Shown: one piece after another, positions 11,421-18,730 of the stretch
Position numbering within the stretch: position 1 is the stretch's first letter
How the letters are laid out: every line of letters starts with the position of its first letter
From: a virus
Lineage: Duplodnaviria; Heunggongvirae; Uroviricota; Caudoviricetes
Virus record (IMG/VR): IMGVR_UViG_2671180296_000013
Span: 1-25,079 of that record
Reading direction: 5' to 3' (one strand)
Length of the DNA stretch: 25,079 bases
The notes under the pieces: model-generated
Told to the model about the DNA's origin: nothing
The model's database searches: none
What the model saw: only the letters and a program-made list of their open reading frames with translations
Position numbers and translations under genes: made by a program

Positions 11421-12179
11421 TCAAGTGCCTTTCCTGGTCCAGCCATATTTTTTGAATGCAGGCGCCGCTTCATCGGTTTGTAGCCATTCTGCAAATCGAC
11501 GGGTTTCATCATTTGCATCCTGACGTACTGTAATGTTCATATCACGCCATATCACGTAGTCTGGCGCTATTTCCACGACATCACCAATTTCTGGATTACT
11601 GGCTGCCCAGTCAGCCCAGGTTATCCAGACATCTGCTTCAGGCTGATTCTCAAGAGCCTTACGTGCAGTTCCGCTGTTGGGCGCATATAAAATAATATTT
11701 TTTCGGATTGCGGCGACAGTTTCTATATTCCCTTTACGTCCGGCAATATCTTCCCAGACGCCAGTGCCTGATGTATTACTGGTACCACCACCATCATTAA
11801 CAATTACGCCAATCCCGGGTCTGGTCAGGTCGTCAATACTCCGGATATTTTTAGGATTACCTTTCTTTACCAATAAAATACTTTTTCGCAGATAAAGAGG
11901 CTGAATATCTTTTTCACTGAAGCTGTCTTTATGGTCCCGAATGATAGCCAGAGCAGATTGTTCTGATGCGCCAAACAAGATATCTGCATTTTTTTTGGCA
12001 TCTTCATTCCATTTGTTCTGTGGGCCGTAATGAACGTTCACTATAATACCTGTTTTTTCGGCATAAAGTTTGGCTGCATCAAGCAAGGCTGTATGCGGGC
12101 CACCAGGACCATACAGATTGATATCAGCATAAGCAGCAGAAGACAGGAATATTAAAAAACCTGCCATTATGTTCCTCAT
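11421..12179 (-). CDS. Secreted periplasmic substrate-binding protein, ModA-like (molybdate/tungstate-type PBP fold), orphan
   Basis: 252 aa with signal peptide MRNIMAGFLIFLSSAAYA; overall layout and C-terminal FKKYGWT resemble ModA-type binding proteins. AGGAG SD, own terminator, AT-rich upstream region, and no adjacent permease or ATPase genes. Confidence 0.55.
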   Translation of the reverse strand: MRNIMAGFLIFLSSAAYADINLYGPGGPHTALLDAAKLYAEKTGIIVNVHYGPQNKWNEDAKKNADILFGASEQSALAIIRDHKDSFSEKDIQPLYLRKSILLVKKGNPKNIRSIDDLTRPGIGVIVNDGGGTSNTSGTGVWEDIAGRKGNIETVAAIRKNIILYAPNSGTARKALENQPEADVWITWADWAASNPEIGDVVEIAPDYVIWRDMNITVRQDANDETRRFAEWLQTDEAAPAFKKYGWTRKGT

Positions 12180-13817: not shown

Positions 13818-14279
13818 TCAAACAAAACCAGCCGTTTTCCGGCGTTCATACTCCTGTTTCAGCAACTCAATTGGCGTTGGTCCCGACGGGCGTTTTGGTG
13901 CCGCCAGCTGTCGCCGGACTGGCGGAATGCTCAGGCCGTTACCAACATGCTTTGCCCATTTCGTCAGTTGCCGTTCTGCAAGCCGTTTTAACTCCCCTTC
14001 GGTCATCTGGCGCTCAATCCCCTTTGAACGCATCTCGAGGCAAATGTGATACAGCACAGGCTGAGACCACGGGTATTTATCGCTTCCGTCGTATCGCCAG
14101 GACTCGTTGCGCCAGCGGCGGTACTCCTCCATCACAGCATCCACCGTCAGACCGAATGGATTGGCTCCGCTTTCCGAAATCAGCGCCACAAACTCAGCCA
14201 GGTCCGGAGGCCATGTTTCACCCGCCCGGCAGCGGTCCATGCACTGGCGGCAGACCTGCCGGATTTGCTGCTCAGTCAT
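13818..14279 (-). CDS. Replication protein P-like (helicase-loader family); start uncertain, longer forms from 14360 or 14483 would overlap the O-like gene
   Basis: ...TEQQIRQVCRQ...PPDLAEFVALI...DKYPWSQPVLYHICLEMRSKG... resembles the central and C-terminal parts of lambda P. The ATG at 14279 overlaps the O-like stop (GATGACTGA). Confidence 0.55.
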   Translation of the reverse strand: MTEQQIRQVCRQCMDRCRAGETWPPDLAEFVALISESGANPFGLTVDAVMEEYRRWRNESWRYDGSDKYPWSQPVLYHICLEMRSKGIERQMTEGELKRLAERQLTKWAKHVGNGLSIPPVRRQLAAPKRPSGPTPIELLKQEYERRKTAGFV

Positions 14280-15396
14280 CGCGCCAATCTGTGCAATCCA
14301 GAGCTTCGATGGTGCGGCCCCGTTCTTCCGGGTCCAGCGGTTCGAATAAACCTCCCCCATGAGTTCCCACAGCTTCCACGCCGTTTCCGTCGCTGATAAA
14401 TCCGTTTTCACGTTCCCACTGCTCACGTGCTGCCCGAATTTCCTGAACTGCCCGTGATGCGGTGCCACCTGGTGCTGCTGCATAGTTTGCCCCCTTGCTG
14501 ACTGGTTTAACCTGCGCCCTGACGTGATTTACGTGACGGGCGAATTTCTGCTCCCACTGAACCTGCGTGAAAACTTTCCCCTCCGCTGCCCAGTAGTCCC
14601 GGAAGGCGGCAAGTTCAGCAGGTGTAAATTCCGGCTCAGGAAGAGCCATCCCCCACAACGCAGCCCGTCGTCGAAAATCCCGTGACGGATACCAGCTATC
14701 GCTCATCGGGAATTTCCCGATGGGTTCGCTCAGGCCTTCCAGGTAATCAGGTTCCGCTGTCTGCAACGGCACGCCATTTGCCTCACTGGCCGGAGCACTC
14801 TCGCGCACGCGCGCGTTATGTGTGGGGTTTATATATCTGTTATCTGTTATCTGGATACCGCATGACAAAGCGTTAGCCTTATCCTTAGGCTTATCCTCAG
14901 GCAAAGGGATTGCCTTATCGAATGCCATCCCCAAAGCCTCAGAAACCCCGTAGGACGCGGCTCTCAGCGATTCCCTGGCCTCCCATTTGAGAGGGCAATC
15001 AGGAATTAAAGCGAATGCCTTTGCCCAAGATTTAATGACATTTATCGAGTTTGGCGGATTGTGTTTCGCAGCATTCGGGAGCCAAAAAACTCTGGCTTTG
15101 ATATCTGCTTTCACCATGCCAAGATTCATGGCTTCGCCTAAGGCTAAGTCAAAGGCTTCGATATCCCACCCCAACTCTTCAGCCATTGCTGCCCGCCCGG
15201 CTTTAAACAACCCAGGAATAATCCCGGTAAATGGACTGGTCAGCAGATAAATAAACAAACTCTGTCCACTTGGAGGCAGAGGAGATAACGCCCTAAATTT
15301 GGGATCATCCCATATCGTTATTTTTACCTTGCGATAAGGCTCATTGTTTGCCTTAGTTTTTGGCATGGGATTTGGCATGTTTTTAGCCTTAACCAT
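14272..15396 (-). CDS. Replication initiation protein (O-like functional position), contains iteron-like repeats
   Basis: Large ORF directly upstream of and coupled to the P-like gene; ATG at 15396 with GAGG SD (the track start at 15450 is a TTG); internal direct repeats at 14830-14920. Confidence 0.5.
   Translation of the reverse strand: MVKAKNMPNPMPKTKANNEPYRKVKITIWDDPKFRALSPLPPSGQSLFIYLLTSPFTGIIPGLFKAGRAAMAEELGWDIEAFDLALGEAMNLGMVKADIKARVFWLPNAAKHNPPNSINVIKSWAKAFALIPDCPLKWEARESLRAASYGVSEALGMAFDKAIPLPEDKPKDKANALSCGIQITDNRYINPTHNARVRESAPASEANGVPLQTAEPDYLEGLSEPIGKFPMSDSWYPSRDFRRRAALWGMALPEPEFTPAELAAFRDYWAAEGKVFTQVQWEQKFARHVNHVRAQVKPVSKGANYAAAPGGTASRAVQEIRAAREQWERENGFISDGNGVEAVGTHGGGLFEPLDPEERGRTIEALDCTDWRDD
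14830..14920. repeat. Iteron-like direct repeats (ATCTGTT x2-3; GCCTTATCC-type x3 with a DnaA-box-like TTATCCTCA) inside the O-like gene; candidate origin
   Basis: atctgttatctgttatctgg at 14835-14855; gccttatcc, ggcttatcc and gccttatcg at 14874-14918; an adjacent GC-rich then AT-rich stretch. Confidence 0.4.
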
Positions 15397-15475
15397 AATT
15401 GCCTCATCTGGTGTCGAACCTTCCTCCGGATATAATCTGTGATTCCCCAATCAACAGAACCAAAGGAGGTTCGAC

Positions 15476-15931
15476 ATGTCTTTAATGGCTGTTTGCCAAA
15501 AAATTAAAAATCACATGCGCACTGTGTACAAAATTAACCAGCACGACCACGACATGGTTAACCTGGTAACATGCAGGGCTATAGTTCTCACCCGCTTCCA
15601 CCTGATTCTTACAAATCACTCACGGGATTCTCTCCTGAGCCCCAGTAGCTATGATTCGCTGGCGAGATTGCTATACCAGGCAAGTGAAAAACGTATTACT
15701 GATCCCTTATCTGTTTCCCCTGTCCTTGCTCTTCACATTCTGGAAGACGCTCTCTATGCCCCCCATCAGGAATGCGACTATCAATTTCTTGAAGCTGAGA
15801 AATCAATGAGAGAATGGTTCGTTGAATATCGCGAACGGCAGCAAAAGTTATCCTCAGAGTATTCAGAACTTCCGCAACTTCGCTGGAGTGATCTTCCGAA
15901 CGAATTATTTGCTCTGACCCCAGAAAATTAA
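15476..15931 (+). CDS. Hypothetical protein (151 aa) on the opposite strand to the early-right operon
   Basis: ATG at 15476 preceded by AAGGAGG 6 nt upstream; overlaps minus ORF 15696..16109 by 236 nt, so both may not be real. Confidence 0.35.
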   Translation: MSLMAVCQKIKNHMRTVYKINQHDHDMVNLVTCRAIVLTRFHLILTNHSRDSLLSPSSYDSLARLLYQASEKRITDPLSVSPVLALHILEDALYAPHQECDYQFLEAEKSMREWFVEYRERQQKLSSEYSELPQLRWSDLPNELFALTPEN

Positions 15932-16109
15932 TTCTTGGGGATAAATCGTCCATAACTGAACGCAGGCTAAGTTCTGCGCTCTGAAGCTTCCGAACCGAAG
16001 TTTCTGTACCCCAACCCGCAATTTCTGCATTTTTTGCAAGTTTCAGGATCCAGTCTCGTAGTTCGCCGGGAGTAAGATTTCCAGCATTGATAAACGGTTT
16101 GATTTTCAT
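15696..16109 (-). CDS. Hypothetical protein (137 aa) downstream of ydaT in the early-right operon
   Basis: ATG at 16109, 20 nt after the ydaT stop and on the operon strand; conflicts with plus ORF 15476..15931. Confidence 0.35.
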   Translation of the reverse strand: MKIKPFINAGNLTPGELRDWILKLAKNAEIAGWGTETSVRKLQSAELSLRSVMDDLSPRINFLGSEQIIRSEDHSSEVAEVLNTLRITFAAVRDIQRTILSLISQLQEIDSRIPDGGHRERLPECEEQGQGKQIRDQ

Positions 16110-16128
16110 TGTTAGTTACCCTATTCAC

Positions 16129-16551
16129 TTAATGAACAACAACAGAATCGCCGGACGAACCGCCGCCGCTGAAATGTGCTTTCCGGTAAACGGCCTGGAC
16201 TGCATCATCATGCGCATCAATTGCCGTACTCAACGCTTCCTGCGCCGCCAGTAATGCACGGCGTTCCAGGGTATCGAAGATGCAGAGTCGGTGACGCAGC
16301 TCGCGCGGAAGAATTGCCAGAACCGCAGGGATCAGTTTCTGAATTTTTTCCCTTTGCGCTTTCGTTTCACCTTTCAACCAACGGTGATAGATATTCTGCT
16401 GATTGTTCCAGTCCTTGCCTGGTACCAGGGGCAATTCGCCGCCCCCTTGGCGCAGATATTCTTCAGTAATTGCATTGGCTACCCATGCCTGCCCTTTTTC
16501 AGCGGCCAGGGCTAACAGCACTGATTCAATGTGCTCATGCCTGATTTTCAT
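16129..16551 (-). CDS. ydaT: YdaT-like protein (Rac prophage YdaT family; CII-position)
   Basis: MKIRHEHIESVLLALAAEKGQAWVANAITEEYLRQGGGELPLVPGKDWNNQQNIYHRWLKGETK... closely matches Rac YdaT as I recall it; 140 aa. Confidence 0.8.
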   Translation of the reverse strand: MKIRHEHIESVLLALAAEKGQAWVANAITEEYLRQGGGELPLVPGKDWNNQQNIYHRWLKGETKAQREKIQKLIPAVLAILPRELRHRLCIFDTLERRALLAAQEALSTAIDAHDDAVQAVYRKAHFSGGGSSGDSVVVH

Positions 16552-16810
16552 GAATCAACTCCTGTGCATTTTGTGTGTTAGCTTTACATCCAACAGGTAA
16601 ACCATCGGTCGGATTCGGGTAGATATCAGGCCGAAGTTCATGAGGTGTAACCTCGAAATTCGTAGCCTCCGCGATACGCAATACCTTTTCGGGGCTTAAC
16701 TGACTACGGCCAGTAGCTACGAGGCTAATCATCGATTGCGAACAACCAGCGAGTACGGCCAAACAAGACTGTCGTACACGATTTTTTTTCAAATATTCAT
16801 CTAATGTCAT
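16535..16810 (-). CDS. ydaS: Cro-like HTH regulator (YdaS-like)
   Basis: MTLDEYLKKNRVRQSCLAVLAGCSQSMISLVATGRSQ is an HTH; ATG at 16810 with AAGGTGA SD; divergent from the repressor gene. Confidence 0.7.
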   Translation of the reverse strand: MTLDEYLKKNRVRQSCLAVLAGCSQSMISLVATGRSQLSPEKVLRIAEATNFEVTPHELRPDIYPNPTDGLPVGCKANTQNAQELIHENQA

Positions 16811-16914
16811 AAGGGTCACCTTAGTAATGCCTGTCAAAATATTAACTATATTAATTTAAATGATCAATACCTATATCAGTTTGAGTTTATGAGTTGTGTT
16901 CATAAGATGGTGGT
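16811..16914. promoter_or_regulatory. Divergent promoter/operator region between the cro-like and repressor genes
   Basis: AT-rich 104-bp intergenic region with palindrome-like TTAACTATATTAA and tgatcaa motifs. Position is by analogy to lambda OR; sites not mapped. Confidence 0.45.
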
Positions 16915-17379
16915 ATGAGAAGAAAACGCGAAGAAATCGCATCGCCAGAAGCTACGCAGCGTCTGCGCGCAGTCTGGGATGCCAAAAAAAGAGAGCTCAA
17001 ACTGACTCAGGAGCTTGCTGCTGAGCTAATGGGCTTTGAGACTCAATCCACAGTTAGCCACTATCTCAACGGAAAGGCTCCACTAAACACTGATGCAGCA
17101 TTAAAATTCGCTGTATTACTAAGAGTTAAGCCTGAAGAGTTGAGGCCTGATTTAGCTGATCTGATGAATTACGTCCGTTCCTCAGGAACTTATGACGAAA
17201 GTTTCGAAGGCGAAGGTTGGCGGATGGTTAACAAGCAACAAGCTGATTTACTGGATCTTTTTGAAATCCTTCCCGAATCAGAAAAAGCAAAACTAATCGA
17301 AAGGCTTAAAGGTCAAAATGAACTCTACAAAGAAGCGTTTGAAAAGATGCTGGCAGCTCAGAAACGCATGAAGAAATAG
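16915..17379 (+). CDS. Prophage repressor (CI-like, RacR-position)
   Basis: 154 aa with HTH LTQELAAELMGFETQSTVSHYLNGK; divergent from the cro-like gene and followed by a strong terminator. Confidence 0.65.
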   Translation: MRRKREEIASPEATQRLRAVWDAKKRELKLTQELAAELMGFETQSTVSHYLNGKAPLNTDAALKFAVLLRVKPEELRPDLADLMNYVRSSGTYDESFEGEGWRMVNKQQADLLDLFEILPESEKAKLIERLKGQNELYKEAFEKMLAAQKRMKK

Positions 17380-17397
17380 CTCCCGTAACCTCGTAAC

Positions 17398-17427
17398 TAA
17401 ACCGCCATTTTTGGCGGTTTTTTTGTC
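17398..17427 (+). terminator. Intrinsic terminator after the repressor gene
   Basis: Stem aaaccgcc pairs with ggcggttt (17399-17420), loop atttt, followed by a T-run. Confidence 0.7.
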
Positions 17428-17614
17428 CCCTCAGCTCCCTCACCTTACTTTTTTATCAAAAAAAACACTAAAAATTTCATTACGATAGTACATTTTTATC
17501 AACAAAATGCATATTTGTGTTGATCACTCATATGAATATAACTAATATTATTGCAGAAGCAGCACGGCGCTGTAGGTTTTAGTTCCGCCACCCGGCGTTA
17601 AGGGGAGATATAAG

Positions 17615-17920
17615 ATGACATTTACTCAGGGTATTGACCCGCTAGAAACTAATAATGCTGTATTTTGTCTGGCGTATGAATTGTCTGTACAGGCATCAAC
17701 AATGGCAAAGGAAAGAGAGCTAACTCCAAGGCAGGCACGTCTCGCACTGGAACTCGCCAGCCGGGTATCAGTAGCAAAAAAAATCGCACCAGCCGTAATG
17801 GCACAAAACCTGGCTGATGCAATTACAGATCTCAGGTCAATACAACCATACAATTATCATGTCGAAGAGGCATTAGAAAAATTAATCGCTGCTGCCTACG
17901 CCATCATTGATGAACTGTAA
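17615..17920 (+). CDS. Hypothetical protein, first gene of the early-left operon
   Basis: 101 aa with AAGGGGA SD; not arginine-rich, so not an obvious N-type antiterminator. Confidence 0.5.
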   Translation: MTFTQGIDPLETNNAVFCLAYELSVQASTMAKERELTPRQARLALELASRVSVAKKIAPAVMAQNLADAITDLRSIQPYNYHVEEALEKLIAAAYAIIDEL

Positions 17921-18304: not shown

Positions 18305-18508
18305 CAGTTTTTTCTTGAAGTTCGGCTGATGTCCGCCCTTTTTAAAGTGAATTTTGTGATGCGGTGAATGCGGCTAAGCGCACGCGGAACAGTTAAAAGC
18401 ATCTGTGTTATGGGTGGATTATCCGGCGTTAATTGTTAACTGGTTAACGTCACCTGGAGGCACCAGGCACAGCATCGACAAAGTTCATTTGTAAAAATGG
18501 AGATAATT

Positions 18509-18730
18509 ATGATTGCTCATCACTTCGGAACTGATGAAATACCACGTCAGTGTGTGACTCCTGGCGATTATGTTCTTCATGAAGGCCGGACATATATTGC
18601 CTCGGCAAACAATATTAAAAAGCGAAAGCTTTATATTCGTAACCTGACCACAAAAACATGCATTACTGACCGCATGATTAAAGTCTTCCTCGGTCGTGAT
18701 GGTTTACCTGTAAAGGCGGAGTCATGGTGA
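18509..18730 (+). CDS. kilR: KilR-like small protein (73 aa)
   Basis: 73 aa from the ATG at 18509 with GGAGA SD. Assignment rests on length and on the gene order KilR-YdaE-RacC matching Rac. Confidence 0.5.

Follow-up and report, generated by a model that had tools for sequence, protein, structure and literature searches.

The genes ydaS and ydaT of lambdoid prophages have been read either as a toxin-antitoxin pair or as Cro- and CII-like regulators, and the regulatory reading has been tested experimentally in two systems. In prophage CP-933P, paaR2, ydaS and ydaT were shown to form a CI/Cro/CII-like circuit with PRM, PR, PL and PRE promoters and a leaderless repressor mRNA (Jurenas 2021, PMC8630535; Prolic-Kalinsek 2023, PMC9986795). 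The second system is the K-12 Rac prophage with its racR-ydaS-ydaT genes (Wons 2025, PMC11879457). The same argument from genetic context was made by Jobling 2018 (PMC5917428), citing Casjens 2003. Here, we analyzed the 25,079 nucleotides (nt) of the IMG/VR virus record IMGVR_UViG_2671180296_000013, positions 1 to 25,079 (the window), which cover about half of a Rac-like lambdoid prophage, namely its early part, and in particular the genes between positions 16,129 and 17,427. This region is very probably the lysis/lysogeny control region of a Rac-like Escherichia coli lambdoid prophage, with an immunity cassette unlike that of K-12 Rac. The regulatory reading of ydaS and ydaT is supported for this locus but already published; what is new is an uncharacterised immunity specificity with its predicted sites. 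Throughout the text, an operator is a site predicted by sequence comparison, and the promoters and transcription starts are likewise predictions.

Gene content of the control region

An earlier note on this DNA placed here ydaT, a Cro-like gene of the YdaS family, a divergent repressor gene and a terminator, and all of them were found where it had put them. A CI-type repressor gene is divergent from the Cro-like gene, across an intergenic region of 104 nt, and a CII-like gene follows the Cro-like one; ydaS and ydaT thus do stand in the cro and cII positions, and the two intergenic intervals that had been named for motif discovery, 16811-16914 and 17430-17614, are also correct. Nine related loci, from E. 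coli, Hafnia and metagenomes, have the same order of a repressor gene divergent from YdaS-like and YdaT-like genes, which indicates that the genes are real and not chance open reading frames (ORFs). Two Salmonella contigs, in which no YdaS-like or YdaT-like gene was called, are uninformative on gene order.

The repressor contains a helix-turn-helix (HTH) domain, HTH_3 (Pfam, E 2.9e-9), and its residues 12-82 align to the N-terminal domain of lambda CI (E 4e-8 to 2e-7). A repressor from a non-DNA-binding family had been named beforehand as the result that would speak against a regulatory role, and the family found is a DNA-binding one. In the alignment, lambda residues Q33, E34, D38, Q44, S45 and N52 correspond to Q32, E33, E37, Q44, S45 and N52 of the repressor. 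Within the repressor family, Q32, E33 and Q44 are invariant, N52 is kept in at least 90% of the members, position 37 is always acidic and position 45 varies among S, G and A; the N-terminal arm, MRRKR, is basic. In lambda CI, Q44 and S45 recognize TATC in the half-site, and E34 and D38 form the acidic patch that contacts sigma-70 and activates PRM. Because the equivalents of this patch, E33 and E37, are conserved, positive autoregulation is possible.

The C-terminal part of the repressor is of another kind. For residues 105-154, BLASTP detected homology to DicA of prophage Qin (its residues 85-134; E 2e-6), and hhalign relates the repressor to DicA at 97.6% over 117 columns that cover both domains. 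Past the HTH, the structure model shows only helices and short bridges. No Pfam domain was detected in the repressor beyond the HTH, and the S24 peptidase that characterizes cleavable repressors of the CI/LexA type was not found. Therefore, the description of this protein as CI-like, given in the earlier note, holds by homology for the DNA-binding domain and fails for the remainder, which is non-cleavable, and induction by RecA-stimulated self-cleavage is not expected. LexA boxes, used as a marker for an SOS-controlled antirepressor, numbered 7 across the window compared to 6.0 expected, and none was convincing. The strong terminator predicted after the repressor gene was confirmed: the 9-bp stem with its T run folds at -14.4 kcal/mol (z = -5.1), which was equalled by none of the 200 shuffles, and relatives keep the hairpin with different stem sequences.

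The Cro-like gene requires a choice of start codon. The ORF as called spans 16535-16837, with a TTG start at 16837; we took instead the ATG at 16810, which is most likely the true start. This ATG is the annotated start of the near-identical gene in the prophage of E. coli RM9088, has a ribosome-binding site, AAGGTGA, upstream, and falls downstream of the predicted transcription start. The protein matches PF15943 (38.5 bits, with a cut-off of 30) and HTH_3, as well as the “Cro” entries 8c7k and 8co2 of PDB (E 1.5e-6 and 2.7e-6, respectively) and phrog_35 (E 2e-27). Its identity to K-12 YdaS is 42% over only 50 residues. We also tried DicC as a possible relative and detected no similarity.

YdaT is a clear member of its family (PF06254, E 5e-11, 43.3 bits with the cut-off at 21), shares 96% identity with K-12 YdaT and aligns end to end with PDB 3c4r and 8bt1. 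It matches phrog_163 (E 1e-36), which PHROGs names “CII-like transcriptional activator”, and several phage records label YdaT homologues as CII. Residues H56/R57, which bind DNA, and L107/A110, in a helix, are all retained in the translation; in K-12, H56/R57 are needed for binding, and L107/A110 were named as well (PMC11879457). Over the ydaT start lies a box with one mismatch to TTGATT-N6-AATCAA, the YdaT box described at the ydaS/ydaT junction of CP-933P (PMC9986795). The K-12 YdaT footprint, ATGATTCATGAAAATCAA, spans the start codon of its own gene, and YdaT activates repressor-sense transcription there (PMC11879457). Among the related loci scanned, the box was found over the ydaT start in 8 of 8, divergent YdaT proteins included.

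If the YdaS-like protein and YdaT were a toxin-antitoxin pair, or toxins held by the repressor, the region would be an addiction module rather than a developmental switch. The Pfam names are still “YdaS_toxin” and “YdaT_toxin”, and K-12 reports describe ectopic YdaT or YdaS as toxic and RacR as essential (PMC5700377, PMC5700373, PMC11879457). However, both proteins belong to the DNA-binding HTH class, and structures are available for relatives of each, a POU-like tetramer for YdaT and the Cro entries for YdaS; YdaT has a defined operator that is conserved at this locus; and both genes lie between a CI-type repressor and the replication genes, in a complete lambdoid layout. In addition, the toxin-antitoxin idea failed in direct tests (Jobling letter, PMC5917428; Jurenas 2021, PMC8630535), the toxicity is accounted for by regulation of the host gene rcsA (PMC11879457), and the loss-of-binding data for H56A/R57A argue against a YdaT toxicity independent of DNA binding. 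We consider an addiction module extremely improbable here. The regulatory reading advanced in the earlier note is supported by the lambda-like gene order, by three proteins that are HTH binders by homology, and by the YdaT box over the ydaT start.

The immunity cassette and its predicted sites

In a blastn comparison with K-12 Rac, 16128-16557 aligned at 94.7% identity, and nothing else aligned until 17579-17617. Judged by this alignment, the interval between the two is a swapped cassette, in the classical manner of lambdoid mosaics, and its left edge falls at the YdaT box. We found the cassette covered to at least 80% in 75 of 5426 complete E. coli genomes (about 1.4%); a sister type also occurs, with a repressor of 70% identity like that of phage Rac-SA53. 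The label “Rac-type” that the earlier note gave to this immunity region is thus appropriate for the prophage backbone and for ydaT, but not for the Cro-like protein, the operator or the repressor, which has no similarity to RacR; an identity with RacR was ruled out by a BLASTP E of 4.6 and an hhalign probability of 0.2%.

Three promoters were predicted in the control regions (Table 1). The PR-like and PL-like promoters have identical hexamers and spacing and lie within a 46-nt inverted similarity of 74% (16831-16876 compared to 17511-17556). The hexamers of the PR-like promoter are conserved in all relatives, and the PL-like promoter, which precedes the first early-left gene, is conserved in relatives as well. 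The PRM-like promoter is the best plus-strand promoter match within 16530-16914, and relatives keep its -10 element as TAAGAT or TAAAAT. Since its predicted start coincides with the A of the repressor ATG, and no Shine-Dalgarno sequence is conserved upstream of this ATG in relatives, the repressor mRNA is likely leaderless, as was reported for lambda cI and paaR2 (PMC8630535). It should be noted that the PL leader of the first early-left gene (17559-17617) is conserved across heteroimmune cassettes, namely in both immunity types, in Salmonella and in metagenomic loci. A search of this leader, 17555-17614, for a structured RNA or a nut-like element gave a fold no better than that of shuffles (z = +0.5).

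The motif comparison across homologous prophages that had been suggested for the intergenic intervals predicted dyads of the form TATKAR-N5-YTMATA at three places in the control regions, designated OR1, OR3 and OL1. In the entire window, there are only two exact matches to this pattern, OR3 and OL1, both in control regions. For comparison, we used five related loci of 2.7-4 kb, with repressors 78-96% identical to that of the window. With no more than one mismatch allowed, hits in these loci were observed only at the OR1, OR3 and OL1 positions, plus one site beside OL1 in one locus (L012), and the OR1-OR3 spacing is 48 bp in the window and in all five loci. Among 20000 shuffles of the intergenic region that kept its composition, two such hits appeared in only 6. 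The lambda half-site is TATCAC; the predicted half-site likewise starts with TAT, which fits the Q44 retained in the repressor, given what is known of the lambda structure.

The RacR operator motif is (W)TAGGC-N3-GCCTA(W) (PMC9638921). We found no match to it in 16811-16914 or 17430-17614, and the total for the window is 20, compared to 25.6 expected. Conversely, TATKAR-N5-YTMATA was not found in the K-12 immunity region. The absence of the RacR operator here, together with the absence of the predicted pattern in K-12, points to a different immunity specificity.

Using the observed domain content, gene order, terminator and YdaT box as a framework, and taking binding sites, transcription starts and regulatory signs by analogy from lambda, CP-933P and K-12 Rac, we propose the following scheme. 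In a lysogen, the repressor would bind the 17-bp dyads OR1 and OL1 and shut off the PR-like and PL-like promoters. Occupancy of OR1 would silence the cro-like gene, ydaT and the replication genes, and occupancy of OL1 would silence kil, recombination, xis and int, while OR3, located within the promoter of the repressor itself, would allow for negative autoregulation. The repressor mRNA would start at or next to the AUG, leaderless like that of lambda cI. Upon infection or derepression, the Cro-like protein may compete in the same region, and YdaT on its box may raise repressor-sense transcription, as reported for K-12 and CP-933P.

Several observations weigh against this scheme. A generic promoter scan at its threshold listed none of the PR-, PRM- and PL-like promoters, and these calls rest on hexamer matches and conservation. 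The sites of the window on which the operator pattern is scored are also those from which it was built, and one half of every dyad overlaps a -10 hexamer; therefore, the conservation may in part be that of the promoters. A convincing OR2 was not obtained with this pattern, the best matches having 3-4 mismatches. A PRE-like plus-strand promoter was sought between the YdaT box and the repressor gene, and none was found at a relaxed threshold; activator-dependent promoters are often without a consensus. Finally, an IS21 element (istA/istB, 3607-5573) is inserted beside a truncated antirepressor-like gene, and the prophage may be defective, in which case the switch would act solely as a repression module.

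Some of these points could mean that the three dyads are not repressor operators, with conservation due to -10 elements or AT-rich DNA and the true sites located elsewhere, for example, in the GATCAATAC...ATCAGTTT block. The most conserved intergenic block, 16862-16882, is indeed unexplained by the pattern, and CP-933P and K-12 show broad footprints and ambiguous motifs. If conservation resulted solely from promoter elements, the half-sites located in promoter spacers, which are normally unconstrained, would be expected to vary. Instead, they are kept as TATKAN, whereas the central 5 nt vary freely. The five loci contain no pattern hit elsewhere, apart from the extra site beside OL1 in L012, and the length, symmetry and positions of the dyads mirror those of lambda OR1, OR3 and OL1. 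We therefore hold this explanation to be unlikely and retain the dyads as the predicted operators. The block TCAATACCTATATCAGT, almost invariant across six loci, lacks dyad symmetry and does not follow the operator pattern; its possible roles are those of an atypical OR2, of a site for the Cro-like protein or YdaT, or of an upstream element of the repressor promoter.

Table 1. Features of the control region; promoters, transcription starts and operators are predicted
Feature	Position	Strand	Details
ydaT, CII-like transcriptional activator, 140 aa	16129-16551	-	PF06254
Cro-like YdaS-family HTH gene, 91 aa	16535-16810	-	17-nt overlap with ydaT
YdaT box	16541-16558	read on -	TTGATTCATGAAAATCAG; ydaT ATG (16549-16551) in the spacer
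Immunity cassette unlike that of K-12 Rac	16558-17578		cro-like gene, OR, repressor, terminator, OL/PL
PR-like promoter (cro-like gene, ydaT)	16839-16867	-	-35 TTGATC 16867-16862, 17-nt spacer, -10 TAATAT 16844-16839, start ~16832
OR1	16840-16856		TATTAACTATATTAATT; over the PR -10; one mismatch to TATKAR-N5-YTMATA
Conserved block	16864-16880		TCAATACCTATATCAGT; at the lambda OR2 position, midway between OR1 and OR3 (24 + 24 bp)
PRM-like promoter (repressor)	16881-16908	+	-35 TTGAGT 16881-16886, 16-nt spacer, -10 TAAGAT 16903-16908, start ~16915
OR3	16888-16904		TATGAGTTGTGTTCATA; between -35 and -10 of the repressor promoter; exact pattern match
Prophage repressor, 154 aa	16915-17379	+	lambda-CI-type N-terminal HTH, DicA-type C-terminal helical domain, no S24 peptidase
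Intrinsic terminator	17399-17425	+	9-bp GC-rich stem 17399-17420, then T run
PL-like promoter	17520-17548	+	-35 TTGATC 17520-17525, 17-nt spacer, -10 TAATAT 17543-17548, start ~17555
OL1	17531-17547		TATGAATATAACTAATA; over the PL -10; exact pattern match

State of the prophage and its other genes

A different explanation takes the region as a fossil in a defective prophage, that is, a module in the style of DicA/DicC that silences harmful early genes (kil, ydaT) without any lysis/lysogeny decision. The K-12 Rac prophage behaves as such a repression module, and the C-terminal domain of the repressor is shared with DicA of the defective prophage Qin. The IS21 element (istB 3607-4404, istA 4401-5573) adjoins a short gene for 157 residues (5647-6120) with only the N-terminal domain of the P22 antirepressor; its insertion may have shortened this antirepressor-like gene and could be a sign of a defective prophage. 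On the other hand, the regulatory genes, the terminator, the promoter hexamers and the YdaT box are all intact and evidently conserved; the replication, recombination, xis and int genes of the window are full-length ORFs; and Rac-SA53, with its 70% identical repressor, was deposited as a complete 52-kb phage genome. A fossil module is thus possible, yet it appears to us rather unlikely compared to a control region that serves the lysis/lysogeny decision.

The surroundings of the control region are those of an early region of a lambdoid phage. Beyond ydaT lie an ORF of 137 amino acids, a gene for a DnaT-domain replication protein (14272-15450) and a lambda P homologue (13818-14483); beyond the repressor gene lie an early-left operon with kil (in kilR-region DNA), recombination genes, an excisionase gene and, at the end of the window, an integrase gene. 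The 137-residue ORF (15696-16109; phrog_37051, E 5e-94), which separates ydaT from the replication gene, occurs in RM9088 and OkiPb01695 but not in K-12 Rac, where ydaU directly follows ydaT. A stretch at 18340-18516, which lies just upstream of the kilR-like ORF and overlaps its start (18497-18730), beside the region homologous to kilS of K-12, matches Rfam STnc100 below the threshold (33.9 bits compared to a gathering score of 47; E 8e-5). The recombination module (19349-23118) is a hybrid: it encodes first a 677-residue protein with only the N-terminal domain of Exonuclease VIII, then Gam, a RecT-family annealase and a YqaJ-type exonuclease; at this place, K-12 Rac carries RecE/RecT.

A second near-consensus YdaT box, CTGATTATTAATAATCAA, with one mismatch, is located at 23559-23576, 51 nt upstream of the xisR ATG (23627). 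A TAATAT sequence follows at 23598-23603, 21 nt past the box, the right half of which falls where the -35 of such a promoter would be. The chance expectation, by our own estimate, is ~0.05 such sites per 25 kb, and an identical box is present in K-12 Rac (1704-1721 of that locus, L007). The published work on K-12 YdaT reports only two YdaT sites within Rac, and the two K-12 papers searched make no mention of the box upstream of xisR. These observations raise the possibility, which we regard as doubtful, that YdaT directly controls the integration and excision genes of Rac-like prophages through a PI-like, YdaT-dependent promoter upstream of xisR-intR. Conservation lacks power as a test of this box, as 1925 E. 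coli genomes contain the region and its identity is 90% or higher in every one of them. The distant YdaT-type phage mEp237 has a box with two mismatches inside its cII-like gene and none near int; the idea is thus not supported beyond Rac.

The genome nearest to the window is E. coli RM9088, with 98.3% identity over 2.8 kb, the prophage of which is located at ttcA and carries LT-II and pertussis-like toxin genes. The window itself encodes an ADP-ribosyltransferase similar to pertussis toxin S1 (7920-8645) and a binding subunit resembling S2/S3 (7427-7909); the two genes lie downstream of one for a Q-like antiterminator (DUF1133, 9033-9695). Such cargo matches that of the Rac-like LT-II prophages of the closest relatives. 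A periplasmic-binding-protein-like gene (SBP_bac_11) is located at 11421-12179; its counterpart in the RM9088 prophage is annotated as the AcfC-family adhesin Paa. The gene is thus carried by the prophage as virulence-associated cargo.

Comparison with known systems

The locus has little bearing on the debate about YdaS and YdaT, which was settled in favor of regulation by the experiments on CP-933P and K-12 Rac. What it adds is modest: the record of a second immunity specificity for the Rac backbone, with sharp cassette boundaries, and coordinates, predicted from the DNA, for the operators and promoters of an uncharacterised repressor. This repressor combines, in one protein without a self-cleavage module and on toxin-carrying prophages, a DNA-binding domain of the CI type with a C-terminal domain of the DicA type.

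Among the described systems, K-12 Rac (PMC9638921, PMC11879457) has the same layout on the same backbone, with 92-95% identity in the flanking DNA. The YdaT box over the ydaT start and the -10 hexamer TAATAT of the rightward promoter are found in both. The two differ in the repressor, that of the window being unrelated to RacR, and in the junction of ydaS and ydaT, which are separated by 22 nt in K-12 and overlap by 17 nt here. In CP-933P, PaaR2 was reported to have no similarity to CI (PMC8630535), whereas the N-terminal domain of the repressor described here is clearly homologous to that of CI. Furthermore, paaR2 is co-transcribed with the paaA2-parE2 toxin-antitoxin pair (PMC8630535), whereas a terminator directly follows the repressor gene in the window, and CP-933P YdaT is only about 30% identical to the Rac type.

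Compared to cI-cro-cII of lambda, the repressor of the window has a helical domain of ~70 residues in place of an autocleavage domain of the S24/LexA type, the Cro-like protein is an all-helical HTH of the XRE type, and there is no evident N/nut system. As the CII analogue, a POU-like tetramer acts on an inverted repeat and not on direct TTGC repeats (PMC9986795). The repressors of the window and of the Qin DicA-DicC system are both small non-cleavable HTH proteins encoded divergently from a Cro-like gene, and their C-terminal domains are homologous. The N-terminal domain, however, is nearer to that of lambda CI than to that of DicA, and no YdaT-type gene is annotated beside dicC in Qin.

The closest phage record is Escherichia phage Rac-SA53 (KU052037), which carries the LT-II toxin and in which the two regulatory genes are annotated as dicA/dicC. 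The 70% identity of its repressor extends over 98% of the length, and it shares with the window the gene order, ydaT, the YdaT box and the 5' leader of PL. It differs in the recognition helices of both the repressor and the Cro-like protein, and among its sites, only the OR1-like one fits the operator pattern. Rac-SA53 is thus probably a sister immunity type to the one described here.

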